Assembly (NCBI GenBank): GCA_030390025.1
Contig: CM059431.1
Span: 126,172,001-126,236,000, forward strand
Source of the DNA: Squalus acanthias
Taxonomy: Eukaryota
Length of the DNA: 64,000 bases
Direction of reading: 5' to 3'
Each line of letters begins with the position of its first letter. Position 1 is the stretch's first letter. Below, piece after piece: positions 32,751 to 60,794 of the stretch. Position numbers and translations under genes: made by a program. The notes under the pieces are model-generated. The model was given only the letters and a program-made list of their open reading frames with translations. It was not told where the DNA came from and did no database searches.

Positions 32751-33725
32751 TGTAAGGGGTTTTTGTCTCGGGCTTATTTGTAGGTCAGCCAGTTATGTTT
32801 TCCTGGGCTGTCCTGCACGCTGTGCGGTTGCGAATCGCTATCCCCTTCCTAGTTCTGAGCCCAGGACTTATTGAGCGGCGATAAGGACAAACGAACAGAC
32901 CCGTGGATTGGTGCGAGAAAACCAATGTTTATTTACAGAAGTAAAACTACAGAGAAACAGTATCATACGAAGAAAACAAAATCACTATGCAATACGGTTT
33001 TACACTTAACATGGGAGGAGAACGGACACATCGAGGGAAAATCCTAAAATTACAATTTTAGCAATATCCCCATTAATTCCCACCCTTATGCCTAACTAAA
33101 ATTGTCTTGCGACAGCCAGAAGATAATGCTCACCGGTGAAATGGATGGAAAAACCTGGCCCTGGACCCTGTTTCTGCCGTTGAAACGTGGCTACAAAGTT
33201 TCTGGTCTTCTTTCTTGGCTGCTGGCAGACAGGCAGGGTGAACCGGGATCCAGGCAGAGAGAGAGAGAGAGAGGGGCTGGGTCTTCCCAGTTATACGCTC
33301 GCAGTCGTCCTAATCTCCCTTCAGATCAGCTCATTTCTATTGTCTGATCTGGGCATGATGAATTTTAACTAAAGGTACTGATCTTGGCCCATCATGTTAG
33401 ATGGCCGGTAATTGTATCATACCAGTTCTTCAACTGTTCCCCTTTGTCCGACAGGTTCGATGATTGTCCAGCACAGTCTCAATATCCCCGCTGATTATTT
33501 GAGCAAACACCTTGAAAGCCTTATGCGTAGACCTGATTGGGTTTGTCCCCATTGCATCGGAATACACAAGCTGATAGTTTGCCAGCGTCTGAAAAGCTCT
33601 TGGTCACAAGGTCTGACCGCAGCCATGCCCTGGATTTTAAAACTCAGTCAGACCAGGGTTCCTTATTAATAAGTCCAACAAAAATCTTCGGGGGGGGGAC
33701 ACATGAAATTTTGCGAATCCTTTCA
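32751..33725 (-). repeat. 3' LTR of provirus A (975 bp)
   Basis: Direct repeat of 39722-40700 with multiple substitutions and small indels. Preceded on the minus strand by a G-rich PPT. Confidence 0.95.
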
Positions 33726-34064
33726 GTCCCCCCTGTGGAGACTTAAACTTGCTTGAAGTGTCCATACGAGGTGAACAAAATTTCTGACTGTCGCAAACAA
33801 CCTTCCCCTTTATTTACCTATCCTAATTCCCCCGACACGTACATTCCCCCACTTGGAGAATAACCGCAGTATACAGCAGGCATTTTAGATAGGAAACAAA
33901 TTCTTTTCCAGTAATCCCAGCACGGAGGGGGTCCAACATACCCCTGCACCACTTGGGATAAAACAGTTTTTTTTATTAAAAAAAAACAACAAACGGAGGG
34001 GACCATCTTTATTAAAAATAATAAAATTAGGCCGCCATCACTCGCAAGTGGTGCGACACGGAAT

Positions 34065-36413: not shown

Positions 36414-36428
36414 TTCCCTTTTAATTGC

Positions 36429-36447
36429 CTGAAAAAAAAATAAAGAA
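36429..36447 (-). promoter_or_regulatory. Candidate env splice acceptor (provirus A)
   Basis: Minus strand reads ttctttatttttttttCAG|gcaattaaaagggaaATG. The equivalent in B is ...tgatcaCAG at 55215-55217. Confidence 0.65.
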
Positions 36448-36806
36448 CACCTAGCCAGGCTCCCTATAGGCTCCTTGGCTGGGGTGAAGTGTGAGCGGGT
36501 CCCTCGACCTCAGCTCACATGGACAAACACACATACACTGGAACGGTTCCATCTTAAAACTGCTATACGGTTCCGCACCTTAAAATCAAACTCAACAATC
36601 TAACTTAAAACTATAAACTTCTCAGACCAAGTTCTGTACATTCGCCGCCCGTCTCCGAGCGGCTAGCTTAAACTCTGTCAGGACTGCGGCAGGCTGCTCC
36701 CTGCAGCGTGGCTGTACGGACCCTTACTTCTGGTCCCTCACAGCCTGCGACTGTTGGCTGGGGACCTGTGTCTTTTAACTTAACTTTTGCTCGGGAGGTC
36801 ACCCCT

Positions 36807-37793
36807 TTAAACCGGCGACCATGCCTTCCTAGGTTGGGGTGTCCGAGGGGACCTCCTAGGAAGTGCTATAGGTGGGGCTACCCTGGCGAGCAGACCCTTG
36901 CCGTGGGTCGCAGTCCTCGCTGGCTGGGGGCTTTTCCCCCGTGGCTCCTCCCCTCCCAAGTCTGAGCTGGGGACAGGCAATCCCTCACTGCCTGCTGCTG
37001 TTGGCTGAGAGTCCTCGCCTCCAGGTTCAAAACCTGGGTCGGGGGCGGGGCTATCTGGTTCGGGCTCCTCCTCCTCCCCACCTGAGTCCCAGAAGAGAGG
37101 GGGGGTGGTTTGAACAGGGGCCTGGGTGACTCCTCCCTCAAGACAGGCCACTGCGCCTGCTTGTGCAGTCTGTGAACTGAGACCTGCTGGGAGCTGAGTA
37201 CTTCTAACCTTGGGGTGGTCCACCCTTGCTGGCTCCTCCCCTTTGTCGGGTTTAAACAGTTTGCACTGGTTAATGCTGCTAGCAGCCTGCCAGTGAACCT
37301 GTTTTAAAACCTTGTCCGCTGCCTCAAACGGACCTTCTATGGACTCTCCATTCTCTCTCTTTACCAGGACGGCCTTAAGGACGGGATCCTGGGCTTGGAC
37401 CTGCTTTAAGTCCGGGGCCAAGGCTACCCCCTGTGTGCCTCCCTTGTCCCAGATTGCGGCTACCGGACCTGCTTTGTAGGGATTCCAGAACTCTCCTTCC
37501 CTGGCCCCCTGCTTGGCTGACTTGTTGGCCTTTTGGTTACCCTCCCACGTGGTATGGAGGGATCCTAAATCTATGTCCAAAGGTTTGGACATTGCCCCAG
37601 CCTGCTTGTTCCCTGTGAATCCCATTAATCTGTACGGGACCCCGTTAGACCTGGGTGAATTGGTCAGGCCTTCCGAATGGACCACCGTGCTGGCAGCTCC
37701 GGTGTCCACCAAACATCTCCCCTGCAATTTCTCCACCCCCATCTTACCATCGTATCCCGGGGGACACAGGTGGACAGGCTGCGCTGGTTCTAG
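36807..37793 (-). pseudogene. pol: Internally deleted pol of provirus A (half PR + RNase H end + IN fragments + tail)
   Basis: LVDTGAAS...LHTTW is joined to EGNQKAN...GPF, then to LKQVHWQAA, then to NQCKLFKP. RT and the IN core are absent. Confidence 0.88.
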
Positions 37794-39718
37794 TCATAGG
37801 TCTGCGTTCTATGGGGCTGATGGGGTCAGAGCACCGGTGGTTGCTGCTATCTTCCCCTGACTGGCCAGGAGAACCCGCAGTGATTCTAGAACGCTCTCTA
37901 CTGTGGGGGTCCCAGTGTCTACCTTTGGGCCTGGAGCTGTGGAGCTCTTTCCCTTGGTGTCCTTCCAGGGGTTTTTGCAATCTTTGCGCCAGTGGCTGTC
38001 CTTCCCGCAGCCATAGCAGTTTAACTTATTCTGGGAGGGACGGTTTCCCTCCTGGTGCCACTCTTTCTTATTCTGGCCCCCAGGTTTAACCTCGTGGACT
38101 TTCCCTTTGGGCTGGGGCATCTCAATTCCCCTCCCGTTATTTCTAAATGCTACCGTGAGCTGGCGGATCACCATTTCTTCGGTGGTCTGGGGGTTTTGGG
38201 GGTCAAACCAGGCCACAGCCTGGGCTCGGATTTGGGGCAGGCAGTTCGTCATGAGACAACGGAGCCAGTGGGCCAATTGGTCTCTGTTGAGGAACATCCG
38301 CACTGGCGTTCCCGGGCACGCGCTCTGGTAGACTGGCCACAGCCTGTCTGCGAATGTCTGCGGGGACTCCACGGGGACCTGTACCGTTTTTTCCACTCGG
38401 GTGAACGGACTCCCATCATTTAGTCCCATGGCCTCCAATATCTCATCCCTTAACTCCTCGTAATCTTTCTGTCCCTTCTTACACTCATCCGATAGGGTTT
38501 GGAGGAGATCACTACCCAGAGAGAACAGCAGCATTTTTGCTTGTTCTGCCTCATCGCAGTCATTAACGCATGCTGCCTGCTCTATCTCCCAGAAATGTAG
38601 AGAGGGGTCCCCCCTCACTGTGAGCTTAGGGATGTGTCGAACCATGGCTCTGAGCTATTGGGTACCATGCGGCACTAAAAACTGGTTCTGGATTGCCCCT
38701 AGCTCCTCGCCATCGGCTGGCGGGCCATATCTCCGTTGTCGGAGGGGGTACACTGGTCCCGGACCCGGTTTATCCCCTAGGGCCTGCTGGATCTCCCATA
38801 ATGCTCCATCCTCCACCCCCCCTTGCTGCCAGGCCTCTTGAAAACTCGGGGCTCTGGGTGGCGGTCGTAAAACCTCTGATTCCCTAACCAGTGCCTTTCT
38901 GGGAGCTGCCTGTGGGACTTCCCTGCTTGGGTTGCTGGTAAAATCCAACTGGCCCATCTTCGGGCTGATGAGGCATACCATGCCCTTCGCCCTTACTAAG
39001 GCCATGCCCAAGCTTTCTATTTCTTGCCTGCAGGGGCCGTGGTCTGTGTCTTCAAACCCCTGGGCACAAGCCAGCTTATATGCTGCTTTTACTTCGCCTA
39101 CTTTCTCCTCCTGCTCTTTCAACTCTTGCGTGAGGCTGGAAATCTTGTCCATTAACCTAACCTCACTACCTCTCGCCTCTCTGACCTGGTATTCCAGGTG
39201 TTCCATCCTGTGCCTAGCGCTACTTTTGAGCTCTGCGATCCGGTCTTCCAGGCGCTCTGACTTTGCCTGGTGTTCCCTTTGAGCTTCAACGGCCCGGGCC
39301 CTCATACGCTCTAACTCAGCCTGATGGTCCCGTGCCGTCTGCACCCTCTCTTGGCTTACTGCCTGGAGGGCCACTACTACTTTCTCCTCCGCTGCAGTCT
39401 TTTCCTGCAGCTCTCGGGTCAACTGTTTGATCTTGGCTGCCCGTGTTGCAACAGCACGGTCTAACACTAAAACCTGCTTTTTCAAACACATGAGCCAGAC
39501 CGCTTTTTCAATACCTCTCCTGTACTCTTTACTTGCTGTCCACTGGGCAGCTGCATCTAGGGGGCGCTCGGCTTTTAACATATCGCACACCCTTTTTTTG
39601 CGATATTAACTTTGCCGCACACATAGGTAGATAACCTCCACTCCATTGCGGATTCCTCCTCCGCAACACGGTCTGCCTTATCACACGCTTTCGCATGGGC
39701 TTCTACCTGGCTCGCCAT
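37794..39718 (-). pseudogene. gag: gag of provirus A (1-nt deletion at ~39592; premature TAGs at 38655 and 37809)
   Basis: ORFs 38655..39590 and 37809..38645 align with Gag B (EKAVWLMC, HGMVCLISP-like, DPSxHFxEIEQ, CYGCG..HWRKxC). Confidence 0.9.
39707..39717 (-). promoter_or_regulatory. Primer-binding site, tRNA-Arg(ACG)-type (11-nt match)
   Basis: TGGCGAGCCAG is complementary to ...CUGGCUCGCCA of tRNA-Arg(ACG) as recalled. The match breaks after 11 nt. Confidence 0.7.
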
Positions 39719-39721
39719 TTC

Positions 39722-40700
39722 TGTAAGGGGTTTTTGTCTCGGGCTTATTTGTAGGTCAGCCAGTTATGTTTTCCTGAGCTGTTCTGCCCGCTGTGCGGTT
39801 GCGAATCGCTATCCCCTTCCTAGTTCTGAGCCCAGGACTTATCGAGCGGCGATAAGGACAAACGAACAGACCCGTGGATTGGTGCGAGGAAAACCAATGT
39901 TTATTTACAGAAGTAAAACTACAGAGAAACAGTATCATATGAAGAAAACAAAATCACTATGCAGTACGGTTTTACACTTAACATGGGAAGAGAACGGACA
40001 CATCGAGGGAAAATCCTAAAATTACAATTTTAGCAATATCTCCATTAATTCCCACCCTTATGCCTAACTAAAATTGTCTTGCGACAGCCAGAAGAAGATA
40101 ATGCTCACCGGTGAAATGGATGGAAAAACCTGGCCCTGGACCCTGTTTCTGTCGTCGAAACGTGGCTACAAAGTTTCTGGTCTTCTTTCTTGGCTGCTGG
40201 CAGACAGGTAGGGTGAACCGGGATCCAGGCAGAGAGAGAGAGAGAGAGGGGCTGGATCTTCCCAGTTATACCCTCGCGGTCGTCCTAATCTCCCTTCAGA
40301 TCAGCTCATTTCTATTGTCTGATCTGGGCATGATGAATTTTAACAAAAGGTACTGATCTTGGCCCATCATGTTAGATGGCCGGTAATTGTATCATACCAG
40401 TTCTTCAACTGTTCCCCTTTGTCCGACAGGTTCGATGATTGTCCAGCAGTCTCAATGTCCTCGCTGATTATTTGAGCAAACACCTTGAAAGCCTTATGCG
40501 TAGACCTAATTGGGTTTGTCCCCATTGCATCGGAATACACAAGCTGATAGTTTGCCAGCGTCTGAAAAGCTCTTGGTCACAAGGTCTGACCGCAGCCATT
40601 TTATGCCCTGGATTTTAAAACTCAGTCAGACCAGGGTTCCTTTTAATAAGTCCAACAAAAATCTTCGGGGGGGACACATGAAATTTTGCGAATCCTTTCA
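39722..40700 (-). repeat. 5' LTR of provirus A (979 bp)
   Basis: Minus strand reads TGAAAGG...CCCCTTACA, followed by GAAA and the PBS. Confidence 0.95.
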
Positions 40701-45060: not shown

Positions 45061-46884
45061 TGGGCCCACCGCCAATCCAATCTTTGTCAAAACTGAAAAT
45101 CAGTTCCAATGAGTTCTGTGTCACAGAATGGTTGTTTCTAGTATTTGCGGTAGGAAAGGAGGAAACAGTATTATTGCACTAATTTATCTTATCATGCCTT
45201 GGCTGTAATTGAAAAATGCCCCCTTTCCAAAAGTGATTAGAACCGAGGATAAGCAGTAGCTGATAAAGTAATGCAATTCACTTCTTAAAACATTCATTTC
45301 AGTTGTGAAATGAGTTAATTAAGATAGTACATTCCATTGAAAAAGCAATACAATTTTAATCAAAATTACGACTGAATAGCAAAACAGCAACATCAGCAGC
45401 ACTTTTTAAAAAACTGAACTGTTACAAAGAATTATGAACAAATACAAGTTTATTTAACACTGTTAGTGCCAGAGAGCAATAATTTTCAGGATGCAAAGCT
45501 GTTTTGACACTCAGAAATGCAAATTAGATAGATTTCTTTCAGGATATAACATTTTGGGGTACAGTATATGAGTAAGGACGTGGTAAGTGTAGCATGCTTG
45601 GGAGGAACAGGTGACTTTGGACCTGTGGTTCCCAAAGCTCCCCACTACTAGGGTTTTCCTTGTGTCATGTCTGGGTCTGTTGGAGACTAATTGATAGAGA
45701 TTGGTTGCTATGATTCGTCAACAACTCCATTATCATTGTATCATGCGACTTCTAGGATGATAGAAGGCAATCTAGATGAACCTTGTCCTTTTCCCGTGTA
45801 GCAATTCCTCTGCTCCTATGAAAGCAATTTCACTGTTCCCGCGCTTGATGGTTCTATACTTCATGGGTCAAGAAGGTTTGTACATTTAACACTCCTATTC
45901 ACTCATTAACTTCTCAAGGGCTAATACAACAATTCCCAAACACAACAGGGTTACAATGTTCTCCTTTTCTGCTTGTTCTTTTAAATTTTTGTCTTAATTA
46001 TCCTTTCTGTCTCTTTTTCTCTCTCTTAATCCATTTTCTTTTCCCCTCTTTATTTCTCTTTCTGTGTCTAATTTGACTCTAATTCACCCAATTTCCGTGT
46101 CCTCCATTCGCTTTGTTTCTTTCTCTAACTTTTTCTTTCATTGGTTAAGGAGATAGACCATTGGGCACGACGTTCATAAGGTCCCTGATGCAACATTGAC
46201 ATTGCTGCACTGTTATCGCTTTGATGTTCCATCAATAGTGCGATGTGAACGGTGCGATTAAAAAGTCTAATTAATGTCATTGCAGTAATTTCAGGCCTGA
46301 TAATTCATTTCCTTCATGCAGGCTGGCTCAGTGACTCTTCACAGAGTCGTATCCTGATAATTCCTTGTAACTATTTCATTGCTTTTAAATAGATAGCAAT
46401 GATGAAAAAATGGTCTTCAATTGATGAATCTTGATTAATGCAAGCCTTTGTGATCATTTGTGGAGATACATGGAATACTCTAAAATTTGATTAGGCAAAC
46501 AACTTAAATTTACAAGCTTCATCAATCTATTTGGAATCTATAAAATATTGATCCAGTCTCATGAGATTATCTTCTAATTTTGAGTCTATATATATTATTA
46601 AGGTGTAACTATATATTCTCATACCAAAAATTAATGGGGGGTGAAATTGGTCTTCGGCTATTGCAAAATGGCTGATAGCGAATCAGCAGCCTGTTTTACA
46701 CTCTATCTGATTTTCTGGCAAAGTGTTAAATGAGCTGCCAATTCATTGTCGCCCAATTTGTACTTCTGCCGAAGACCAATTTCATACCCAACAATTTCAA
46801 AATTGCTGCTATTTGGCTGTTTAGCAATCAAGTAATCAGATCGACAAACCCTGAGAGAAATCCTTGTAGATCAGCTATGAAACC

Positions 46885-48594
46885 TGTAGAATTCGCAATA
46901 TATCGCGATTTTATAAATAAGGAGAGAACACATAGTTTCGTTCAAACAGCTTTTATTTCAGCAGAATGCTGTCAGGTTTCAAAGTGGACACAAGCAGCTT
47001 GTAAAATGGCCGCCGCACCTCGTGGCGGAACATTCTAGACTTTTCGACAGGCAGACAAGATGGCGTTCCAATAAACATTTGTGCAAGATCGATTAAGACT
47101 CAGCACATTGAAGATAATACACGAGACATCATGGGTTTACAGTATACACATAAATACTGAAATCGGTCTCCCAGGTACGAATGAAAGCTATTGTACCAAG
47201 TAATCAAGAGCCCATCCAAAGACATTAATATGTAAAATCCCAACGACTCTACGATGAGAGAGCCGTTAGCGGGTAGTTACAGAAAACACTTGGAAGCCCC
47301 AAAACCCCTCCAGGGAGAACACCGACCGATTAAACAATGGGAGAAATATTAACAGGTACTCAGACATTTACGAGTAGCCCCGAAACCCATTAAAAACGGA
47401 GATCACCCTATACAAGACATTTGAGCGCCAAACCCTAACAAAAGAAAAGACATTAAGGTTGGGCGGGAAACGGAAGATTTTGTACTATAATTACAAGCTC
47501 CAAACCGTCCATCGCTCTCTTATCCTCTTATCTTGCTGGTGTTCATCCTCGTGGCTGCTCCTGTGCTCTTGACTCGCCGTCTTGTTCCTGCTTGCCTCGT
47601 GTCTCTTTTAAAAGACTGTTGAACTTTGTGATCCGCTCGGATCTACCTCGTGTCGTGTCGCGAAGACCTGTGTAGAACTGGGCTCTGAAGCCTTGAAGCG
47701 GGCGCACCATTCCGATAAGTCGGTAAACGGTGTCGGAACCGAAGGCCCGAGACGAGATGAGATGAGATGAGATGAGATGAGAAGAGAAGAAGACCATACT
47801 TATCGCCACGGTCAGTAAGCCCCGACCGCGCCTGTAGGTCGAATAGACATTTTCCCTGCCAGGAAGACTTCTTTGAGTTCTACAGAACTGACACAGGAAG
47901 ACTCTTCTTTGAATTTTATCGCACCCGTGCGAGGGCACAGGAAGACTCTTTTTTGAGTAGAGTCGGAACTCCGAGGACAACACAGATCTTCATGACAGCA
48001 GACGTTCCAGCCTGCTAGCCGGAGCAGAAACGAGTAAACAAGTGGGGCCAGGAGACCCCCTGATCGACACGTGGGTGCTGCGGTGAAAAACATCCGAGCA
48101 GAGTTTTCGGAATTCTCCGAGTTATCACGAGTGGTGAGCATGAGTCTCGAATCCTACGAATCTAGTTTAGAATAGGTATTGATAGGGGAGGGTTTAAGTT
48201 TTAAGGATAATTGTAATGTGCGCCCCCATTTACGATGTGTCGTTCGTTCCTCGTTTCCCTGAAATTAATTACATAACTGCGTGCAAGATTGTACTGTCAT
48301 TAATCTGTGCTTATGACATGTATTTCGTAATCTTAAGTATTATGCAATAAAGATTTTCCATTTCGTACCATTCAACCGAGTCTACCTGAGTTTCATCTCC
48401 ATTACTGCTCTCGCATCTAAGTCCAGTGTCTAGAACCGTAAGGGCGAGTGGGTCGAACCACTCACAGGTGTGTCTAGTGCTCCCAGACTGGCTGGAGACC
48501 AGAACAGGCAATAAGGCCTAAACCCGCACTAGCATCCAGGCTGCACAGAGCCACACGAATCTCACAGGCTGAGAGACGGTCAGAAACCCTTACA
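46885..48594 (+). repeat. 5' LTR of provirus B (1710 bp)
   Basis: TG...CA termini. GC box at 47461, TATA-like TATAAT at 47486, AATAAA at 48346, internal (GAGAT)n. Confidence 0.96.
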
Positions 48595-48598
48595 GAAA

Positions 48599-50404
48599 AT
48601 GGCGACCGCGGCAGGACACTGGCAGCGAGAGGGTAGTGTGTTAGACTTTGGTGTGAATGTACAAAATGTTATGCAGGAAAAGATAGCAGATTATGTGTTC
48701 GGAAAGGTAAATTTAACTAAGAAATGGATAAGTGACCTGTTAGCGGATAAGAGTCCACTAGAGGCAGCCGAGAGGTGGACAGATAGTAAGGAACATAAAA
48801 AGACAGTCGAGAAAGCAGTCTGGTTAATGTGTTACAAAAGGCAGGTCCAGATTTCAAACCAAGTCATTACAGCACAAACAGCTCGGATCAGGCATTTAGA
48901 GGAGGAAATGGATGAGAAGGTCTCTGGAGGGGAGTTGCTCATTAGGAATTTAAGTGTGCTGCACCAAGAACGCCAGGAAATCACCAGTCACCATAAAACA
49001 AGGATAGATTACCTCGAGTGCCAGGTCACTGAGGCAAAGTTAAGTGAGGGCAGACTAAAGGAACGATGTGCCCGCCAAGCTGCCCAGATAAGAACCCAGG
49101 AAGAGAGCTTAATGGGGGTTAGGGCAGCATATAAGTTGGCCCTTGAGGATAAGTTTCAGGGGGCCGATCATAGCGCCTGCCAACAGGAGATAGAGCACCT
49201 TAAAAGGGCCGTGAACAAAGCGCACGGCATGGTGTGCCTTATCAGTCCGTCAGCACACCAGCCGCTAGTAAATGAGGAATTTCAGAAATCCCCACCAAGT
49301 AAAGCAAAGGAAGTATTGGCCACTGCGCCCTCCGCGCCACCCAGCTATTCGGAAACCTGGGTAAGGGAGGAAGTAGTGGAAGAAACGAAAGAGCCCACTG
49401 AGGGAGAAGTGGAAAAGGGACCGTTGTATCCGGTAACGGGTATAAAAAGGGGCCCAAACAGAAACGGGGAGGAAGAAGGGGTTCTCCTCAACCAGCTTGT
49501 GTTGCCTCACAGCTCACACCAGCTGAGAGTTATGATAAATCACGTACGGAAGCTGACCGAGTCAGACGACCCTTCCGTACATTTCAGAGAAATTGAGCAA
49601 ACCGCAGCCATCAACGGCTGCGATGATGGGGAAACAGCAAAAATGCTGTTATTTTCGTTAGGCAGTTCAATCCTTCAGTGTCTCTCGGACGAGAGCAAGA
49701 GGGGAACCAAGACTTATGAGGCATTGAAAAATGAGGTCCTAGAAGTGTTGGGGGCGGACGATGAAGGTCCGTTTGCTAGAGTGGGACAGACAGTGCAGAT
49801 GGAGGGAGAACCCCCGAAGGTTTTTGCCGACAGGCTGTGGCCAGTATATCAGCGCAGCTGTCCAGGTGCGCCAGAGCGCGACGCTGTGGACGGCGCCGGT
49901 TTAAATCATTGGCTCAGGTGTATAGTAGCCAACAGTTTGCCAGCCGTCAGAGAACAGGCAAAGGCGTGGTTTGATCCCAATGACCCCAACATTACGGAAG
50001 AGTCGGTCTTGAATCGACTCACGATAGGATATCGCAATATCAGGGGTATGGGAACACGTCCCCTTAAGGGAAAAGTACATGAGGTACGACCCGCAGCCCC
50101 GGCTCAAAGGGAGTGGCATCAGGAGGGTAACCGCGCCCCGCAGGCAAGTAATGCTTGTTACGGGTGTGGGAGGACAGGGCACTGGCGCAAGAACTGCAGG
50201 AACCCTTGGAAGGATTCCAGGGATAAAAATCCCGCAGCCCGAGCCCAGATGCCTGTCTCTGTTAGGGAAGCTAGTGCACCCACCCCTCCCGACGACCTCG
50301 AATCAGTGTTGGGAGCCATGCGCAACTTCATGAGTGCGCATGGAAAAGTGGCGGTTGCTACCGGCCCCGTAGGTGCCGCAGGACCGTCTAACCAGACCCA
50401 ATGA
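48599..50404 (+). CDS. gag: Gag, 601 aa: N-terminal coiled coil, capsid-like region, single CCHC knuckle
   Basis: Intact ORF right after the LTR. Zinc knuckle CYGCGRTGHWRKNC (Cx2Cx4Hx4C). Confidence 0.92.
   Translation: MATAAGHWQREGSVLDFGVNVQNVMQEKIADYVFGKVNLTKKWISDLLADKSPLEAAERWTDSKEHKKTVEKAVWLMCYKRQVQISNQVITAQTARIRHLEEEMDEKVSGGELLIRNLSVLHQERQEITSHHKTRIDYLECQVTEAKLSEGRLKERCARQAAQIRTQEESLMGVRAAYKLALEDKFQGADHSACQQEIEHLKRAVNKAHGMVCLISPSAHQPLVNEEFQKSPPSKAKEVLATAPSAPPSYSETWVREEVVEETKEPTEGEVEKGPLYPVTGIKRGPNRNGEEEGVLLNQLVLPHSSHQLRVMINHVRKLTESDDPSVHFREIEQTAAINGCDDGETAKMLLFSLGSSILQCLSDESKRGTKTYEALKNEVLEVLGADDEGPFARVGQTVQMEGEPPKVFADRLWPVYQRSCPGAPERDAVDGAGLNHWLRCIVANSLPAVREQAKAWFDPNDPNITEESVLNRLTIGYRNIRGMGTRPLKGKVHEVRPAAPAQREWHQEGNRAPQASNACYGCGRTGHWRKNCRNPWKDSRDKNPAARAQMPVSVREASAPTPPDDLESVLGAMRNFMSAHGKVAVATGPVGAAGPSNQTQ
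48600..48617 (+). promoter_or_regulatory. Primer-binding site, tRNA-Arg(UCG)-type
   Basis: TGGCGACCGCGGCAGGAC, 5 nt after the LTR. It is complementary to the 3' end ...GUCCUGCCGCGGUCGCCA of vertebrate tRNA-Arg(TCG) as I recall that sequence. Confidence 0.85.
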
Positions 50405-53400
50405 CTAGAGCCCGCGCAGCTCGTCTACCTGTGTCCGCTCAGCTATGATGCGTGGAAGCGACCCCTGGTGGAAATGGAGGTAGAGAAACAGAAGGGTAGT
50501 TATTTGTTAGACACGGGAGCTTCTTGCGCCGTGATTCATACAGATAGCCCTTTTGACTCACCGCTATCTACCAAGGTCCCATTCACATTAGCGGGATTCA
50601 CGGGAAAAGAACAGGCTGGCGCGTTCTCCTTTCCGCTATCCATTCGTTTGGGGGCACTTCACATCAAGTGGAAGTGCATATTGATGGAATGGCAGGAGGG
50701 GGGTGGAAGAGGTATCCTCGGGTCCGATCTTCTATCAGGACACGGGATCCTCGTGGACCTCAGAAATCATTGTCTCTGGGGGGCTAAGAGTGAAAAAGGC
50801 GAGGTCGTGGTAATTCCGGGGGAGGAAGAAACAGGGGTCCTGTGTACCATGCAGCCATCCGGAGGCTACGACCTCGGGCTCATGGTCGCAGATGTCCCAA
50901 CGGACATGCAAACGTACGTGTCAGATAATATGCACGCGTTTGCAACCCACAAGCACGATTGTGGGAGGGTTACCGGGTTGGAGGTCAGCGTAGATGGGGA
51001 CCCCATGACCCGGCCCCAAAAACAGTATAACTTCCCCAAAGAAGCAGAACCCGATATGGAGACAGCAATGTCCTCCTTGGTGCAGCAGGGCGTGTTGAGG
51101 CCAATAGCCACACACGTGAACTCCCCATTATGGCCGGTTAGGAAGCCGGATAATTCGTGGAGGGCCACGGTGGACTACAGAGTCCTTAACAGTAACATTC
51201 CCGCCTGCGCGCCCACGGTAGCAGCAGTTGCTGACCTAATAGGGAGTATCCCAGCGTCTGCGACCACGTTCACGGTGCTGGATATCTCGAACGGTTTTTG
51301 GTCCATCCCGCTGCGGCGAGAGGACCAGTACAAGTTTGCCTTTACTTTCAAAGGACAACAGTACACATGGAACTGTCTGCCACAGGGTTTCCACAATAGC
51401 CCCAGTATTTTCCATCAGTGTATGGCAGGAAGTTTAAAGGAGTTTAGTCAGCCCAATCAGATAGTGCAGTACGTGGATGATTTGCTCCTATTTACGGATT
51501 CAAGGGAGGAGCATGGACCACTGCTGGCCGAGTTATTGGAGCTGTTAGCGAGAAAGGGTTTTAAAGTAAACCCTAAGAAAGCACGTATCGGTCAGCAGGA
51601 AGTAAAATTCCTGGGGCTGACCATTCGCGCTGGGGAAAGAGCCATAGATAAGGCTAGGAGGGAGTCGGTGCAAGAGTTACCAATTCCTAACAACATAAGG
51701 GGTGTGAGGTCCTTCTTGGAACTGACCGGTTACTGCAGGGATTTTATCGAAGACTATGCGGCCACAGCGGCGCCGCTCCTCCGACTCCTCCATAAGGGAG
51801 TGGAGTGGTCTTGGGACGAGGGCTGCCAAGCAGCCTTCGAGAAGTTAAAAAGGGATCTGCAGACCGCGCCAGCCTTAGGGGCCATAGATGGGGGGAAGGA
51901 GTTTTTCCTGGAGGTAGCTGCCAGCGGGGACAGCTTGAGCGCTGTGCTGCTCCAAGAGCGTCACGGCAAGCTGAGGCCGGTTGTCTATTCGTCCAGGGTG
52001 TTAACGGATGTGGAGAGAAGTTTCTCCAATTGCGAAAGGCACCTTTTAGCCACGCATTGGGCTGTGAAAAGATCAGCGATCTTCACAGGGCTCTCTCCCA
52101 TCACTCTCCTCACCCACCACACACCAACTAAGATGCTTCTAGATGGGAGGATTAAAGATGGGACCGTAAGCAGCGTGCGTTTTGCGCGCTGGACCATTCT
52201 TCTTTCCCAGATGGATCTTAGAGTAAAAGGTCTTTGCGAGCCCAGGCTTGCGGCCAATTTGGTATACCCCGGTACAGCCCACCGATGTTCGGCGGAAGGG
52301 GTGTGGGACGTCAACATAGGTTTGCGGGCCGGGATACATCCCACTGGGCGCGAGATTTATGTTGATGGTTCTAGCACAGTATCTGCTGGCGAACGACTCA
52401 CAGACTGTGTAGTTTATGACCCTGCGGCAAACCTTGCCCTGGCGATCAAGCTCCCTAGCACCATGAGCGCGCAGCAGGCTGAGCTGTCTGCTGTGGTGTA
52501 TGTTGTTACCCACCCAGACATCTTCCCAACCCTATACACGATTTGCTCGGACAGTATGTTCACATGTAATTCGTGTACGGAATACCTGGCCATTTGGTCC
52601 CGCCGTGGATACACCTCCGCGGACGGGCGACCTTTAACGGTGAAGCCCTTGCTGGAAAAGATCCTAGCAGCAGTAGGGGATGAAGGGGAGATTTTCATCC
52701 ATAAGGTGAAAGCTCACTCCTCCACAGAGCCCCGTGGGGAGGGCAACCAGCAGGCAGATGCGCTAGCCAGGGAAGGTGCCCGCAACGGCATTTTCTGGGA
52801 CCCCTATGGGACCAGACCCATGGCAGCGATCCAAGGCAGGGACGGGAATCCCGGGAACCCCAGGGTAGCATTGCCCCTAGACCTTAAGACCGTCGAAACC
52901 CAGGATCCCGCCCTAAAAGCAGTCCTAAAAACCATTGCTGAAGGGAAGCAAGTAGAGGGTCCGTACAGTACGGCAACCCTCTCAGTTAAGGAAGGCATGC
53001 TGTTCCGCGAGGGGCAGTGGGTTGTGCCGCAGCAGCACAGGAGGGAATTCCTCCAGTTGGCTCACGAGGGACCAGGGGCAGGGCACCCCGGGCCCGAGGT
53101 TACCTGGCAACGGGTAGAGCAAGCGGGATGGTGGCCAGGGCTCAGGGAACAGGTCCGCGAGTTCTGTGCAAACTGTCTTGTGTGCGCTGCAAACAACCCA
53201 GACCCCCAGAAAAGGAAAGTGCCCATGGGGCACGTAAGAAGGGTAGAGGGACCATGGCAGTCGATACAGATCGACTATATAGGGCACCTGCCTACCACCC
53301 AGGGAGGCTATAAATACTGCCTCGTCTTGGTGGATGTGTTTTCCAAATGGGTGGAAGCCTTCCCCTGTCGAACAGCTACGGCACTGGGTACTGCAAAAAT

Positions 53401-54931
53401 CTTGGTCCGGGAAGTGTTCTCGCGGTGGGGACTCCCCCGTTTTGTGGAGTCAGACCAAGGGAGTCATTTCACCGGACAGGTGATGCAGAACACCCTCATG
53501 CTTTTGGGCATTGAAGGGAAGTGGCACGTAGCACACAATCCCCAGTCATCCGGGATTGTTGAACGCATGAACCGGACCCTGAAGGAGAAATTGAGGAAAG
53601 AGACTAGGAACTCGCCCCAAAAATGGGCGGAAGTTCTGCCTTTAGTCCTCATGGGGGTCCGGGCCAGTCAGTCAAAAAGTACGGGGTACTCCCCGCACGA
53701 GGTGATGACTGGGAGGCTCATGCGAACCCCCACCCATGTGCTAGCGCCGGTGCTCACTGAGGGTCAGCTCCAAGAGATAAGCAGGGACAAGTTCGCCCAG
53801 ACCATCTTGGAGCGCCTGAAGCAGGTTTATGAGCAGGCGGCTGGGAACATGGGAAGGCAGCATCAGGGCAATCGCCTGTTGCTGGAACCCCGCAAAACGC
53901 GGGAGTGGGAAGTAGGAGACCAGGTTATGGTCAGAAACTACGCTAGAGTAGGGAGTCTGGAACCACTGTATATGGGACCCTACAACATTGTAGATTAGGC
54001 GAGTCCCATGATATACGCCGTAAAGGTACCTCGGCGCACTAAGTGGTTCCATGTAAACCAGTGCAAACTGTACAAGCCAGGTGCGCAAGGGAAAACCACA
54101 GGGGTAAACCCTGTGAGTGGGGACGCGCAGCCCCAGGTAGGACCACAAGGCACACAGGCAGGCAAAGCAGCTTGCATCAGGGGAGGAGACATCCTGGAAA
54201 ATTGTGAAACATTTTTGTGGGGTTGGGAGTCAGATGAGGGAGAGTTCTTGGAACTCGAGTCAGATGAGGATAGTGATGAGGACGAGTGGGGATCGGGGAA
54301 CGCAAGGGTCGCCCCCGATTCAGGTATAGGGAGGACAGGGGCTGCAGATAGAGATCCACACAGGGTGGACACCGAGGCTGCAGGTCCCGAACACAGGAGG
54401 GAGGAGTTAGGGGAGGCGGAGCCAGCCGCTGTGAGACCACAGGGAGTGACGGTGAGAACCTCAGAGCCCGAGCCGCCCACCTTGAACGTCCTGCCCTCGG
54501 GGGAGGTAGGGATTGCGAGTGAAGGGCCGCCTGCTGGGCCGAGCAGGGCAGTGCCACAAGCTGCAAGTCCCGAGGTCAGGGAGGCGGAGTCAGGGGAGGC
54601 GGAGCCAGTGACTGTGGTGGGACCACAGGTCGTCCCGGCGAGAGTCTCGAACCCCGGTCCGTCGGTCCTGGGATTCCTGCCCCCGACAACTCCTCGTAGG
54701 TCAAGTAGAGAACCCCAGCCCAGGAAGATGTGGGTATGGCCCCAGACGGTCCCAAGGCGTAGACTCAAGGTTAAGGCAGCCCAGATAGAACCCGGTCCCA
54801 TCGCAGCAGCAACAGGCTGCGGCAGATCAGAGGAAGGGGTCAGTGCAGCAACAGGCTGCGGCAGATCAGAGGAAGGGGTCAGAGCCCTCCCACCGTCGGG
54901 AAGAGCTCGCAGCAGCCTTCTCAAAATTTAA
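50405..54931 (+). CDS. pol: Pol (PR-RT-tether-RNase H-IN-long tail), in frame with gag, with one internal TAG at 53996-53998
   Basis: PR: LLDTGAS. RT: LDISNGFW, LPQGFHNSP, YVDD. Tether: FLEVAASG...CERHLLA. RNase H: YVDGSS, QQAEL, SDS, KVKAH, GNQQADALA. IN: HEGPGAGH...CLVC, IDYIG, SDQGSHF, GIVERMN, GPY. ORFs 50468..53998 and 54008..54931 share one frame. Confidence 0.93.
54806..54883 (+). repeat. 2 x 39-bp in-frame tandem repeat in the Pol tail (AATGCGRSEEGVS/R)
   Basis: Direct duplication of gcagcaacaggctgcggcagatcagaggaaggggtcag. Confidence 0.9.
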
Positions 54932-55230
54932 AGGGAGCCGCCCTGAGAACGGGCGGCGCTGTACAGGAATAAGTTTAGGATAGGTTTCTAAGTTTATAGT
55001 TTAAGGTTAAGAATAAGTTTATAGTTTTAAATCAGGTTAAGTTTGTAGTTTAATTTTAACAGAAAATGGTAAAATGATGGGAGTTAGAGATAGGTTTAGT
55101 TAAAGTTTATTTAGTGAACATTGAAGTTTACGTGAGGCGAGGTCTGGGGACCCGCTCACCCTTCACAAAAGCCAGAGTCTCTTGCGAGGCTGGCTACCTC
55201 ATTCTATCTGATCACAGGAACCAAGGAAGG

Positions 55231-57581
55231 ATGGAACGAATTCTAGTATTGCTTGCGGCAATCGGATGTGGATTGGCCTATCGAGGCCGCACCAAGGATG
55301 TCGTGGTGTTTGGATGCTCCGGGGACACGGCCCCCATCGCGGTGGATGGGACCGGAAGACGGGAGGCTGAGGAGACCACCACCTATTTCCACAAGGGAAG
55401 GTGGCCAGGATGGCTGGGAACGAACTCAACGGAGTATTCCAGCACATCGGGGTTTGCCTACCAAGAGACTTCTTTAATGTGCCCCAAAGTAAGGATCATC
55501 GCACCCAGGATCAGCGTCACCGTCGGCAAACGGATTTGTTTGACTTGTAGTGGGAATGTCCCATTGAGCCGATGGTGGTGGCTGCGAAAGCTGAGCAAAA
55601 ACATGAGGAACTCTTCGGTCGAGTGGGAACGACTGGGTAATAATACCCATCGGACAATTACGGGGACAAACGGACAAGTGAGAGTCTGTTGGGACAAATG
55701 GTGGGAACCGGATGAGGGAATTTATGTATGTATGTGGGGGTCAAAGTACGTTTGCCCCAAAGGCATCTCCATATTTTTCATTAATCAATGGCAGGATAAT
55801 GGACAGGGGATGAGGTGGGATGCGAGCACCAGGGGGTGCGGAGCCCCATTCTCCCCGATCCCAGTAAATGCCACTGAACTCATTACGCGCCCACGCAAAG
55901 CCCCGCCCACGATTCCGGTGGTTCTAGCTAAGGAAGAAGGGTGCCCTAAAACCAGTAAGGGACCCGGGAATGGTTTGGTACTGGTCCCCACAGACCAGAT
56001 ACTATTTCAGGGGGTCCACTACGCGGTGGCCTCGGTGATTTTAAATCTCACCGAGGTGCGGTTACCAGAGTGGTGCCCCAAAAAGACGGAACAGTTGTAT
56101 CAGGTCCTGTTGACCAAGATGTTCAGACAATTTTACGAATTCGATTTCGCGGAAATTGATAAAACAAGTTTGTACACCGCACCACATGAAGTTTTGGATC
56201 AAGTAGGGAGGCAAAGAAGGGGTGTAGTGAACGACGCGTTCACTGCTTTTAACACGGGTACATCTGTGGTCAACGCTCTAGACAGTGTGGAGCTGCAGAC
56301 CCAGATTAATGGTCTAAAGACGCAATTAAAAGACATTCTAACAGATGAGAATAAAGTGGTAGGGTCGGGTTTACACGAGGACCAAGCCATGACTCTCCAT
56401 TTAAAGGAAATTATAGCAGAGTTGGAGAAACATGCAAAGACGGTAAATGCCCTGATTAGGGAAGATCGGAATGCATCCGATCAAGCTGCGCAGAACGAGG
56501 TGTGCGTGCTTTACGGGGCGTGGTTACTGGGCGAGGGCCGCAGTAATTTGGAGGATTTAAAACAAGGTTTGGTCCCGTCCTGGATAAGTAACAAACACCT
56601 GCGGGCGCTCCACCCTTTTCAGAACGCATTAAGTCCGTGCCAGCTCAGGCTAGCTTCAGAAGCATACCCAGTCCCCGTGGACTGCGGACAATCAAACCAT
56701 ACTATCATGGGTATAGTTTTACATATGCTGGTTTTGGGCGACACAGCAAAGCCCGCCCCGGTGTATCGGGTAGAGAACATTGGTGTCATTCAGGGGGGAG
56801 CCCACATTCGCTATGCAGCGGTTCCACCCTACGTCATCCGCTGGGAGCAAACGATGACAGGTACAGATCTCTCTGGTTGTCGTGGCAGGGGAGCACACAT
56901 AATACTGTGTCCCCAGCACTTGAATGCCTTTTCAACACCACAGTGCGGGTTCAGAACGGCTGGCTCCAAGTCCATGAATTGCACCATGGAGGCAATGGCA
57001 CAAGATCATGTGCCTCCGCAGGTAGCATACATCGGGGGTGGAACATATTGTGTTACCACTGCAGCGCAACACTACCAGCATGGAAACCGTAGCCGGTGTC
57101 CGGTGAGTGACAGCAGTTTCTGTTTCAAACCCAGGGCGGAAGTTCAAGTAGCACAACAGCGAATTGTCCCAATCCCTGAACCATCCACTGTTCATCTAAC
57201 AGTAAAAGAGAATTTCACCGACTTGCAGCGATTCGTTGCACATTTCGGATACCTCATTCCCCCTCTCCCTGAACACCTCACCAAGCTTTTAAAAGCCGTC
57301 GCGGTGTCACAAAAACATTTTTACACACTAGAGCAGAAAACTGTCGAAATAGGAACAGACATTCTGGATATAGTAATTCCACCGTGGTGGAATCTGTTCA
57401 CCAATATTGAAGGCCTTCATGGATCAGGATAGCCTCCCACATTTTAGTCGTATGCCAAGTTTTTATTGTAGTGTACCTATTGGTCGTACATTGTAAAAGA
57501 GACAAACGCCTCACCAAGCATGAAAACACGGGAGAGTGGCGAGAACGTTACGTGCGCGTGCACGATGAAAGCACCGTGTGA
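55231..57581 (+). CDS. env: Env: F-like class I fusion glycoprotein with N-terminal Ig-like domain; 1-nt frameshift at ~57412 before the TM anchor
   Basis: Signal peptide MERILVLLAAIGCGLA, furin site RQRR|GVVNDAF, heptad region, Cys-rich DLSGC...ILCP...QCG. The TM and tail (PSWIRIASHILVVCQVFIVVYLLVVHCKRD...STV*) continue in another frame at 57414-57581. Confidence 0.88.
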
Positions 57582-58020
57582 TCGGAAAATGGCGTCGCTC
57601 CCGCTCGCCACGTGCGCCGCGGAAGTTTGTACTCGATCATGCTTTTCAAAGACTGTAAATACGTTTGGAACTCGACATGTTTTAAGAGTTGGTGTTGATT
57701 ATTTTGGTGATGGTGTTGTAGTTAAAAATGATTGTTTGGTTTTGGTTTTGTTTTTCCTTTCCCTAAATAAAAAGATGAATGTACAGGTGACACGAGAGGC
57801 ATCGGCCTGGTTACGCCGGGAAGGAAAACAAGTGGTGTAAGTTTAAAGGCAAATAATGCCTACGGTGATATAAAATGTAATTTTCTTGGGAAATAAGGAC
57901 GACGCAAAGACCCTAGATCGTTTAAGTTATGGGATTAAATTTTCTGGATTTGGAGAAAATCGAGATAATATTGCTCACCACAATATTTTTGATACGATAA
58001 GCGGAGTTATTCGCATCAAC

Positions 58021-58029
58021 AGGAGGGAC
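58021..58029 (+). promoter_or_regulatory. Short polypurine tract of provirus B
   Basis: AGGAGGGAC abuts the 3' LTR. Provirus A has AGGGGGGAC in the same position. Confidence 0.7.
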
Positions 58030-59734
58030 TGTAGAATTCGCAATATATCGCGATTTTATAAATAAGGAGAGAACACATAGTTTCGTTCAAACAGCTTTTA
58101 TTTCAGCAGAATGCTGTCAGGTTTCAAAGTGGACACAGGCAGCTTGTAAAATGGCCGCCGCACCTCGTGGCGGAACATTCTAGACTTTTCGACAGGCAGA
58201 CAAGATGGCGTTCCAATAAACATTTGTGCAAGATCGATTAAGACTCAGCACATTGAAGATAATACACGAGACATCATGGGTTTACAGTATACACATAAAT
58301 ACTGAAATCGGTCTCCCAGGTACGAATGAAAGCTATTGTACCAAGTAATCAAGAGCCCATCCAAAGACATTAATATGTAAAATCCCAACGACTCTACGAT
58401 GAGAGAGCCGTTAGCGGGTAGTTACAGAAAACACTTGGAAGCCCCAAAACCCCTCCAGGGAGAACACCGACCGATTAAACAATGGGAGAAATATTAACAG
58501 GTACTCAGACATTTACGAGTAGCCCCGAAACCCATTAAAAACGGAGATCACCCTATACAAGACATTTGAGCGCCAAACCCTAACAAAAGAAAAGACATTA
58601 AGGTTGGGCGGGAAACGGAAGATTTTGTACTATAATTACAAGCTCCAAACCGTCCATCGCTCTCTTATCCTCTTATCTTGCTGGTGTTCATCCTCGTGGC
58701 TGCTCCTGTGCTCTTGACTCGCCGTCTTGTTCCTGCTTGCCTCGTGTCTCTTTTAAAAGACTGTTGAACTTTGTGATCCGCTCGGATCTACCTCGTGTCG
58801 TGTCGCGAAGACCTGTGTAGAACTGGGCTCTGAAGCCTTGAAGCGGGCGCACCATTCCGATAAGTCGGTAAACGGTGTCGGAACCGAAGGCCCGAGACGA
58901 GATGAGATGAGATGAGATGAGATGAGAAGAAGACCATACTTATCGCCACGGTCAGTAAGCCCCGACCGCGCCTGTAGGTCGAATAGACATTTTCCCTGCC
59001 AGGAAGACTTCTTTGAGTTCTACAGAACTGACACAGGAAGACTCTTCTTCGAATTTTATCGCACCCGTGCGAGGGCACAGGAAGACTCTTTTTTGAGTAG
59101 AGTCGGAACTCCGAGGACAACACAGATCTTCATGACAGCAGACGTTCCAGCCTGCTAGCCGGAGCAGAAACGAGTAAACAAGTGGGGCCAGGAGACCCCC
59201 TGATCGACACGTGGGTGCTGCGGTGAAAAACATCCGATCAGAGTTTTCGGAATTCTCCGAGTTATCACGAGTGGTGAGCATGAGTCTCGAATCCTACGAA
59301 TCTAGTTTAGAATAGGTATTGATAGGGGAGGGTTTAAGTTTTAAGGATAATTGTAATGTGCGCCCCCATTTACGATGTGTCGTTCGTTCCTCGTTTCCCT
59401 GAAATTAATTACATAACTGCGTGCAAGATTGTACTGTCATTAATCTGTGCTTATGACATGTATTTCGTAATCTTAAGTATTATGCAATAAAGATTTTCCA
59501 TTTCGTACCATTCAACCGAGTCTACCTGAGTTTCATCTCCATTACTGCTCTCGCATCTAAGTCCAGTGTCTAGAACCGTAAGGGCGAGTGGGTCGAACCA
59601 CTCACAGGTGTGTCTAGTGCTCCCAGACTGGCTGGAGACCAGAACAGGCAATAAGGCCTAAACCCACACTAGCATCCAGGCTGCACAGAGCCACACGAAT
59701 CTCACAGGCTGAGAGACGGTCAGAAACCCTTACA
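58030..59734 (+). repeat. 3' LTR of provirus B (1705 bp)
   Basis: Copy of the 5' LTR. By eye it differs by about 4 substitutions and one 5-bp unit at the microsatellite. Confidence 0.96.
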
Positions 59735-60794
59735 AACCTCTAGCAAATATTTATCATTTGTTGATCCGAAAAAAAGGAACCTATGTAGTAGCTTGGCTCT
59801 GCAGTAGCACTTTTACCTCTGAGTTAGACGGTCATGGTTTCAAATCTCAATCTAGAACTTTACCCCCCCTATTCTAGACTAAACCTTCACTGTAGTACAG
59901 AGGGAGTGTTGCATTTTTGGACCTACCATCTTTCAGGTAAGACATTGAAGAAGAAATTCAACTTCATTTTGCCCATTTTTTGAACATAAAACGAAGATTG
60001 GGAGACCAATTTCAGGTTGTGATCTCTCGCGCCCAATCTACCCCAGTACAGTGCCACTGTCACATTGAAAGCAGGTGATTTTAGTTGTGCAGGGCACCCA
60101 CCTGAAACAGTCATTAGGTGCCTTGCATATGCAAATTGGGGTTTTAATGGTTTGTAAGACCCCAATTGAAATTGGTGTACAAATGGGCCGTGCTGGAGCG
60201 GCCTAACCAGCGGTCCTTAAGAGGAAGCTGTTCCAATATAAGCCAGAAAATCTTTTAAATGTTACATTTCTGTGGAACCAGAAGCAACAGACATGCTGCT
60301 CCTTGCTCCATGAAATTACTCGACGATGCTGCTGGTCGAGGCTCACCTGCCTCAGCTTTGCAACCCCCCTCCAAGGACCTTCCTGCAGGCCAGCGCAACA
60401 TGAAATCTGGCCGAAATCCATCAGGCTCTGACCAGTGAGCTGCATCGGGATATACGATTGGCATCCATAACTCCCCTGTTTAATGCAAAAGTGGCTCGAG
60501 GCTGAATTTGAATCGGGGCACAGGCCGTCGGACACCAGCACACGAATCAATCACTTCGCTGGCTTCCTACCCCATTTTGGGCGAAAGCCCAATTTCCCAG
60601 AAATTATACCAAAGCCCCATCTGTCTGTTCAGATAAATGCTGAAGATCCATGAGACTATTTAAAGAAAAGCAGGAATGTTCTACTATCCTGGCCAACACC
60701 AACACCACCAAAAATACTTTATCTGGTCATTCATCTCATCTGGAACCTTGCTGTCTGCAAATTAGCTGCCATGTTTGCCTGCATAATAAAAGAA

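Follow-up and report, generated by a model that had tools for sequence, protein, structure and literature searches.

A recently multiplied provirus of Squalus acanthias with a predicted F-type envelope groups with the canonical retroviruses

The locus described here raises the question of whether a provirus that combines two RNase H folds with an envelope resembling paramyxovirus fusion (F) proteins has to be a lokiretrovirus. The provirus lies on the plus strand, at positions 46885-59734 (12,850 base pairs, bp), of a 64,000-nucleotide (nt) stretch of the Squalus acanthias genome (assembly GCA_030390025.1, contig CM059431.1, positions 126,172,001 to 126,236,000), hereafter the window. Coordinates are those of the window, and features are on the plus strand unless stated otherwise. 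An original prediction, made from the letters alone, had described a very young, near-complete lokiretrovirus-like provirus with an F-type envelope (Env). We consider it probable that the element is instead a germline provirus of a deep-branching, canonical (non-loki) retrovirus lineage, with endogenous retroviruses (ERVs) of sharks, skates, frogs and the coelacanth as relatives and snakehead retrovirus (SnRV) as the nearest exogenous one. This group of shark, frog and coelacanth ERVs is called SnRV-like or class III in the literature.

The nearest relatives of Pol in a collection of 5.8 billion proteins number 35 at E<=1e-10. The closest is a contig protein matching at 89% over the reverse transcriptase (RT) and RNase H, and other near relatives are proteins of three frogs and the coelacanth, annotated as "NYNRIN-like", at 43-45%. 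Scanning IMG/VR yielded 27 retroviral loci, whose names come from a comparison of their RT with named rows of the supplementary alignment of PMC7947760; the SnRV locus was named additionally through the length of 10,688 nt quoted in PMC12193657. Identity over the RT core is 43.1% to SnRV and 34-38% to 25 other viral loci that span the whole core, including walleye epidermal hyperplasia virus (WEHV), walleye dermal sarcoma virus (WDSV), feline leukaemia virus (FeLV), murine leukaemia virus (MuLV), Xen-1 and foamy viruses; one further locus matches over 148 residues only. With the SnRV RT as query, members of the window clade are among the best matches at 49-55% (31 proteins, E<=1e-6).

Two trees were built from the RT and the tether, a degenerate RNase H. 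The first has 50 rows and no lokiretrovirus; seven proteins of short cover, four redundant MLV-like loci and two partial or broken loci were omitted. In this tree the window belongs to a clade of seven rows (support 99/97), outside the clade of epsilon- and gammaretroviruses (100/99) and outside the foamy clade (100/100). The second tree has 46 rows, 32 from the first and 14 of 23 new proteins, and is rooted on eight Ty3/gypsy rows. Here the loki-like protein P0114 branches outside a group of 37 rows (100/99, branch length 0.62) that holds the window clade together with SnRV and the foamy, epsilon- and gammaretroviruses. The window clade has nine rows (84/94), P0108 groups with three bird rows (98/92), and the mutual order of the basal lineages is not recovered; the window again falls outside the foamy clade and outside the 18-row clade corresponding to epsilon- plus gammaretroviruses (100/97). 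In approximately unbiased (AU) tests, forcing the window clade together with P0114 is rejected (log-likelihood difference 32.1, p 0.0002) and forcing it together with SnRV is not (cost 10.1 log-likelihood units, p 0.27). Both groups were named after the tree had been seen, the first being the prior hypothesis of the original prediction. The element sits on the canonical retrovirus side (Orthoretrovirinae and Spumaretrovirinae) of the split between lokiretroviruses and canonical retroviruses.

The reading of the element as a lokiretrovirus, which would make the lineage sister to all retroviruses a new find in cartilaginous fishes, is on this evidence very improbable. The features from which it had been drawn are real: the RT motifs (VLDISNGFW, LPQGF and YVDD) are of retroviral type, the tether and a second RNase H are both recognised by Pfam (RT_RNaseH_2 and RNase_H), and Env is predicted to have an F fold. 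The step from these features to a lokiretrovirus was nevertheless unsound. Tether plus second RNase H does not discriminate, because it is common to all retroviruses, and the F fold is no marker, because the window Env also matches the Env of WDSV, SnRV and foamy viruses. The same reading also draws on the names of the frog and coelacanth relatives, called "NYNRIN-like" by NCBI, since the Loki integrase groups with CGIN1/NYNRIN (PMC7947760). Against it, the RT phylogeny nests the window RT among ordinary retroviruses, with Ty3/gypsy as outgroup and the one loki-like protein outside.

Motifs and Env point the same way. LPQGF is present in all seven inspected members of the window clade, as in canonical retroviruses, whereas the Loki rows seen in PMC7947760, like P0114, have PFG at this position. 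Within the same portion of that supplement, LDISNGFW occurs once, in the SnRV row, and LPQGFH only there as well. P0114 itself has 1791 residues and an RT whose first 53 residues are about 83% identical, counted by eye, to the Loki-Xla row. Identities to Loki rows were likewise counted by eye from this supplement and are approximate; over the RT core the window has about 33% (86/257) to Loki-Oja, lower than the 43% to SnRV. The F-protein family PF00523 is matched by none of 16 family Envs, while a Loki Env is reported to match it at 2.2e-7, and the motifs of a Xenopus homologue of the window Env are absent from the accessible part of the Loki supplement (PMC7947760). Six chondrichthyan genomes had been screened for Loki, with none found (PMC7947760, supplementary Fig. 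S1).

Some comparisons weigh against a canonical, SnRV-allied placement. Over the tether the window has about 38% identity to Loki-Oja (53/139) against about 25% to SnRV, the latter obtained by subtraction, and over RT plus tether the values are about equal (about 35% and 36.6%); with the window about equally far from both, a tree was needed. Only one loki-like row, P0114, stands in that tree, identified as such through comparison by eye with the Loki-Xla row. The tie to SnRV is weak: in the first tree SnRV is sister of the window clade with support of 60/88, and in the second a 24-row clade (94/99) holds SnRV with the foamy, epsilon- and gammaretroviruses and leaves the window clade out.

"SnRV-like" is thus the best available label for the element, without a proven sister relation. 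The label could be one of convenience, the element belonging to an unnamed basal lineage of canonical retroviruses with no specific alliance to SnRV. We regard this as possible, though less likely than not. The second tree, with the window clade, P0108 plus birds and the 24-row clade as its basal groups, fits such a lineage, as does an Env more similar to WDSV than to SnRV in hhalign (probabilities of 96.4% and 86%, E 1.2e-9 and 5e-6). Set against this are the reciprocal RT match, SnRV being the best exogenous one, the sister position in the first tree, a union that the AU test does not reject, and two traits common to both, namely the use of tRNA-Arg and a gag-stop-pol layout. In the SnRV locus (L002) the gag frame spans 625 codons from stop to stop and is followed by a single stop and by pol in the same frame; the gag frame of the window counts 623 codons in the same way. 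The window Gag, in its heptad-rich N-terminal region, matches SnRV gag weakly over the N-terminal part of the latter (tblastn E 5e-4). A tRNA-Arg(acg) gene ends with the complement of the SnRV primer-binding site (PBS), with an ARAGORN gene call in one of six loci. A tRNA-Arg PBS counts as the distinguishing mark of SnRV. SnRV Gag, in the portion of PMC2717909 available, is described as carrying a single zinc finger and a coiled-coil region.

An epsilon-like or foamy-like ERV, the remaining candidate, is so improbable that we give it almost no weight. It would account for WDSV Env being the best match of the Env family profile, for the foamy Env match at 2e-5, and for the integrase, which among solved structures is closest to that of prototype foamy virus (PFV; 3.4e-33 in a sequence search of the PDB). 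Membership of Epsilonretrovirus was rejected on the position of the window RT outside the epsilon plus gamma clade in both trees, and membership of Spumaretrovirinae on the foamy clade, which excludes the window. The window Gag moreover has a zinc knuckle, and pol would be made by read-through from gag; foamy viruses are not known to have either a Gag zinc knuckle or gag-pol read-through.

The second part of the question concerns the envelope. The env ectodomain frame (55231-57432, 733 codons) comprises a signal peptide, a variable, beta-rich N-terminal part, a single RQRR cleavage site (56209-56220), a fusion-peptide-like stretch directly after it and heptad-repeat helices. The membrane anchor and cytoplasmic tail, ending in a stop, follow in a shifted frame (57411-57581) that aligns with the C-terminus of the skate homologue P0001. 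There are ten N-glycosylation sequons, and the CX6CC motif was not found in the window Env. By sequence the protein has no Pfam match at E<0.01, and none of 15 further family Envs matches PF00523 at E<=1, one of them matching Baculo_F at 0.0011, below the cut-off. Searches of PDB chains returned nothing relevant, either with the single sequence (two matches, E>0.7) or with a 40-row profile (five matches, E>0.05, all coiled coils), and the sole result from the ESM Atlas was a chordate cluster with a score of 0.77.

Structure prediction gave a different picture. In the AlphaFold2 (AF2) model the confident core covers residues of about 240-310 and 420-650, and the F-type core corresponds to positions of about 55960-57180. 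Foldseek against the PDB returned 213 matches at E<=1e-3, led by the F proteins of human parainfluenza virus 3 (hPIV3), respiratory syncytial virus (RSV), Langya virus, Newcastle disease virus (NDV), parainfluenza virus 5 (PIV5) and Nipah virus, the best being hPIV3 F (E 2.3e-10, probability 1.0). VIA-align gave Z scores of 12.8-8.8 over model residues 244-650, and its top 50 PDB entries are all paramyxovirus or pneumovirus F proteins; post-fusion Nipah F aligns with Z 11.9 and a root-mean-square deviation of 5.1 over 292 residues. The F1/F2 architecture can be followed through the model: cleavage site, fusion peptide, heptad repeat A (HRA), beta-rich head domains, heptad repeat B (HRB) and membrane anchor. 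On the debit side, the model as a whole is only moderately confident (mean predicted local distance difference test score 61.8, predicted template modelling score 0.45), and its input was an alignment of 40 rows, many of them fragments. The modelling supports an F-type fold for the window Env and bears out the F-type envelope that had been read from the letters. Ahead of the F2-like strand stand roughly 230 residues that are rich in beta structure, modelled poorly and highly variable from relative to relative; we infer that they bind the receptor.

An exhaustive profile search with Env found 50 proteins at E<=1e-3, against three in a word-based search. Named relatives come from five sharks and a skate (Mustelus, Chiloscyllium, Scyliorhinus, Heterodontus, Pristiophorus and Rhinoraja), from the frogs Pelodytes, Mantella and Xenopus, and from Latimeria, the same set of hosts as in the Pol clade. 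The closest are those of a skate, a sawshark and catsharks, in line with the shark-like genome surmised beforehand. In four shark gene models (P0003, P0083, P0046 and P0044) Env pieces are fused to host genes (for a Niban 1-like protein, fbxo15, a cadherin and a zinc-finger protein); these fusions are probably annotation chimeras across ERV insertions.

Among viral structures in BFVD, the Envs of WEHV-1 (3e-13) and WDSV (3e-9) are among the best matches, alongside arli-, lispi- and chu-type glycoproteins, baculovirus F and paramyxovirus F0. A fish filovirus glycoprotein was matched as well, and so were proteins of two herpesviruses, Abalone herpesvirus and Ranid herpesvirus 2 (ORF72). The Env family profile recovers the Envs of WDSV (9e-9), foamy virus (2e-5) and SnRV (4e-5), with no match to gamma-type Envs (E>0.06), all E-values being relative to the open reading frames (ORFs) of the 27 loci only. 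Foamy Env has been tied experimentally to F, according to the part of PMC11468914 that was available. For epsilon or SnRV-type Env, no paper stating such a link was found in the literature searched, and a preprint contrasts a "canonical" Env with the F-like Env of Loki (10.1101/2023.10.26.564294). We tentatively suggest, as an idea less likely than not, that an F-type Env was ancestral to the whole radiation of Loki, the shark/frog/coelacanth clade, SnRV, epsilon and foamy viruses, that the gamma-type replaced it later, and that the present family is the footprint of a still or recently infectious elasmobranch retrovirus.

How the family spread was examined in the 3.71-Gb assembly of the same genome. 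Scored matches, out of first-look candidates, number 61 of 12,251 for env, 39 of 27,507 for pol and 73 of 8,986 for gag. Amino-acid identity is 98-100% for env, 98-100% for pol and 95-100% for gag, and internal stops are absent from 55/61, 34/39 and 59/73 of these matches, respectively. The env open frame, of 784 codons in the window, reaches 810-867 codons in the 60 remaining copies scored; of the 38 further pol matches, 24 lie within open frames of 1460-1521 codons without a stop. An exact 32-nt string of env occurs 707 times in the assembly (its reversed control, zero times), so that env-bearing copies number at least about 700. In eight proviruses, the window included, the two long terminal repeats (LTRs) differ by 0.18-1.1% (Kimura two-parameter distance, K2P, 0.0018-0.0109), and an identical 4-bp target-site duplication (TSD) was found in seven of the eight, each with different flanks. 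Such numbers agree with the recently active lineage first proposed. At 2.2e-10 substitutions a year for each site, the rate assumed by Han for the elephant shark in the portion of PMC4422223 available, the window copy would be about 5 million years old and the eight proviruses about 4-25 million years; at a mammal-like 2.2e-9 the ages drop to a tenth of these. "Very young" is accordingly a relative term, since the ages depend on the assumed rate. Insertion polymorphism could not be demonstrated: in the likely source sample, contigs extend no more than 22 nt into the LTR, and a contig from a second sample breaks off 40 nt short of it, with 21 letters that differ.

The ratio of nonsynonymous to synonymous divergence (dN/dS) in env is 0.05 (dS 0.083) for 21 copies ranked by protein score, a value biased because choice by protein similarity lowers dN, which takes from its force; it is 0.14 (dS 0.055) for seven copies chosen through LTR DNA matches. 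Divergence between copies at silent sites of env (dS 0.03-0.08) far exceeds the LTR divergence within copies (0.002-0.011); it accumulated under selection on Env, and this fits an infection-type spread. Hundreds of copies could alternatively have arisen by intracellular retrotransposition or segmental duplication, with Env playing no role. The high copy number would suit this, and some copies do lie close together on one contig. We nevertheless think it unlikely, in view of the dN/dS of 0.14 in copies picked regardless of protein, the rarity of stops in env, the separate TSDs and flanks of the proviruses and the excess of silent divergence over LTR divergence. For clade III ERVs, cartilaginous fish have been reported in outline to hold high copy numbers of RT (PMC11089739), and in the elephant shark an SnRV-related lineage was found among ERVs that are old and low-copy, as far as the available part of PMC4422223 goes; because these studies report such ERVs, the kind of element is already known. 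The window family, its Env fold and its recent burst were not described in the literature searched.

The anatomy of the provirus is compatible with recent integration, and the boundaries and duplicated target site given in advance proved exact. Two direct repeats at its ends form the 5' LTR (46885-48594, 1710 bp) and the 3' LTR (58030-59734, 1705 bp), both with TG...CA ends. Pairwise alignment shows four substitutions and one 5-bp indel between them (K2P 0.0023), against the roughly five differing positions counted earlier. The element is flanked on either side by the TSD AACC (46881-46884 and 59735-59738). In six of the eight family proviruses (loci L036-L049 and the window) the TSD ends in C, perhaps a sign that integration sites are weakly preferred. 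Five nt after the 5' LTR starts an 18-nt PBS (48600-48617), to which the 3' end of host tRNA-Arg(TCG) is complementary. The tRNA-Arg(tcg) genes of the same genome end with the complement of this PBS (the first 15 nt after TGG), with an ARAGORN gene call in two of nine loci examined. The pattern has 561 matches in the genome, many within arrays of 1623-bp period; on contig C26, genes for tRNA-Arg(TCG), the primer tRNA of the family, sit in long tandem arrays that repeat about every 1623 bp (at about 38.99-40.90 Mb). A putative polypurine tract, AGGAGGGA (58021-58028), adjoins the 3' LTR.

The gag gene (48599-50401) has 601 codons from its first ATG. Its product has a coiled-coil-like region at the N-terminus and a single CCHC zinc knuckle (50153-50200), for which the CX2CX4HX4C pattern is visible and the Pfam zf-CCHC match (E 0.0054) is below the cut-off. 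This ATG (48599) overlaps the PBS, so that the open frame follows the PBS without any untranslated leader in between; the real Gag start may be a later ATG. The gag terminator is a TGA in the context TGA-CTAG (50402-50408), and the UGACUAG heptanucleotide is a read-through motif according to the available portion of PMC13517186. In the same frame, pol (50405-53995, 1197 codons to an in-frame TAG) has the order protease, RT, tether, RNase H and integrase. The protease (50453-50611) matches Pfam RVP weakly (E 0.003, below the cut-off). Stronger matches were obtained for the RT (51137-51625; RVT_1, 8e-36), the tether (51812-52210; RT_RNaseH_2, 1.4e-21, and RT_RNaseH, 3.9e-17) and the second RNase H (52352-52780; RNase_H, 4.9e-19), followed by the zinc domain (53024-53200; Integrase_H2C2) and the core (53252-53542; rve) of integrase. 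Sequence matches of pol in the PDB are about equally strong to Ty3 (2.4e-67), the RT-RNase H of xenotropic murine leukaemia virus-related virus (XMRV; 5.5e-67) and foamy protease-RT (7.9e-62).

Exactly two coding lesions separate the provirus from fully open frames, as had been foreseen. The first is the in-frame TAG (53996-53998) in the C-terminal, GPY-type part of integrase. Beyond it the frame continues as a C-terminal extension of pol (53999-54928, 310 codons), of low complexity and without a Pfam family, which in most other copies is unbroken with pol. The second is the frameshift between Env ectodomain and membrane anchor (57409-57414, near 57411), located by three-frame translation and by alignment with P0001.

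We propose the following cycle for the element. The LTR would drive transcription, and host tRNA-Arg(TCG) would prime reverse transcription at the PBS. Gag would be translated from the genomic RNA, and Gag-Pol by read-through of the UGA-CUAG stop. Integrase would then insert the DNA, with the 4-bp duplication as the result. Env would act as a class I fusion protein of F architecture, cleaved at RQRR into a large N-terminal subunit, probably the receptor-binding part, and a membrane-anchored, F1-like fusion subunit. Recent multiplication would have brought the family to at least about 700 env-bearing copies, and it would have spread mostly by infection-type cycles that require Env, presumably through reinfection, because env was under strong purifying selection while the copies diverged.

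Other mobile elements occur in the window. A second, related provirus lies on the minus strand at 32750-40600 (ORFs 34065-39605), opposite in orientation to the main element. Its gag encodes a zinc knuckle, most of its pol is deleted, and the pol tail and a full env with membrane anchor are present; a few stops interrupt it. The LTR-like repeats at its ends are 97-98% identical, about 6972 bp apart and unlike the LTRs of the main element. The segment 28001-29384 is 74% identical to positions 266-1683 of the main-element LTR, may extend to the left of 28000, and is probably a relic LTR of a related family. ORFs of further elements are LINE-like (endonuclease and RVT_1; 18992-21937, minus strand), an RVT_1 fragment (12441-13019) and a transposase of PIF/Harbinger type (DDE_Tnp_4; 24479-25105).

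The answer to the opening question is that a lokiretrovirus cannot be recognised by an F-shaped Env combined with two RNase H folds, since the same type of envelope is borne by canonical retroviruses of fish (epsilon, SnRV-like, foamy). The envelope result thereby bears on the origin of retroviral envelopes. The family is an unusually large and young set of env-bearing ERVs in a cartilaginous fish, with env under purifying selection; it could serve as a natural system for ongoing germline invasion and points to an undiscovered exogenous retrovirus of sharks and rays.

Compared with known systems, the window Env is like paramyxovirus and pneumovirus F in predicted fold over model residues 244-650 and in its furin-type site followed by fusion peptide, long HRA helix, HRB and membrane anchor. 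It differs in having no sequence-level similarity and about 230 extra N-terminal residues before the F2-like strand, and in being encoded by a retrovirus without a separate attachment protein. With lokiretroviruses the element shares the LTR-gag-pol-env layout, the dual RNase H, an F-like class I Env and occurrence in frogs and the coelacanth, but it stands on the canonical side of the split, has LPQGF rather than PFG, and its Env gives no sequence-level match to PF00523. The Envs of epsilonretroviruses (WDSV, WEHV) and foamy viruses are of the same type as that of the window, although the window RT lies outside both clades and WDSV Env is much longer (1229 codons, against about 790-850 in the window family). 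SnRV differs in its tRNA-Arg isoacceptor (ACG, against TCG in the window) and in the context of its gag stop (UAG-GGC, against UGA-CUAG); unlike SnRV, the window element has much longer LTRs (1.7 kb), a shorter Env that starts inside its own frame, and hundreds of young copies. Yet SnRV is the best exogenous RT match (43%, reciprocal), and the two are alike in gag, single stop and pol in one frame, in the tRNA-Arg PBS, in a Gag with coiled-coil region and one zinc finger (so far as the SnRV Gag description was available), in a pol continuing past integrase and in remotely homologous Envs. The hosts of the window clade, too, fit the published range: in the available parts of four studies (PMC4977317, PMC4131045, PMC4422223, PMC12193657), ERVs of the SnRV clade are recorded from fish, amphibians, reptiles and birds, including the coelacanth, frogs and, as CmiERV lineage I, the elephant shark.

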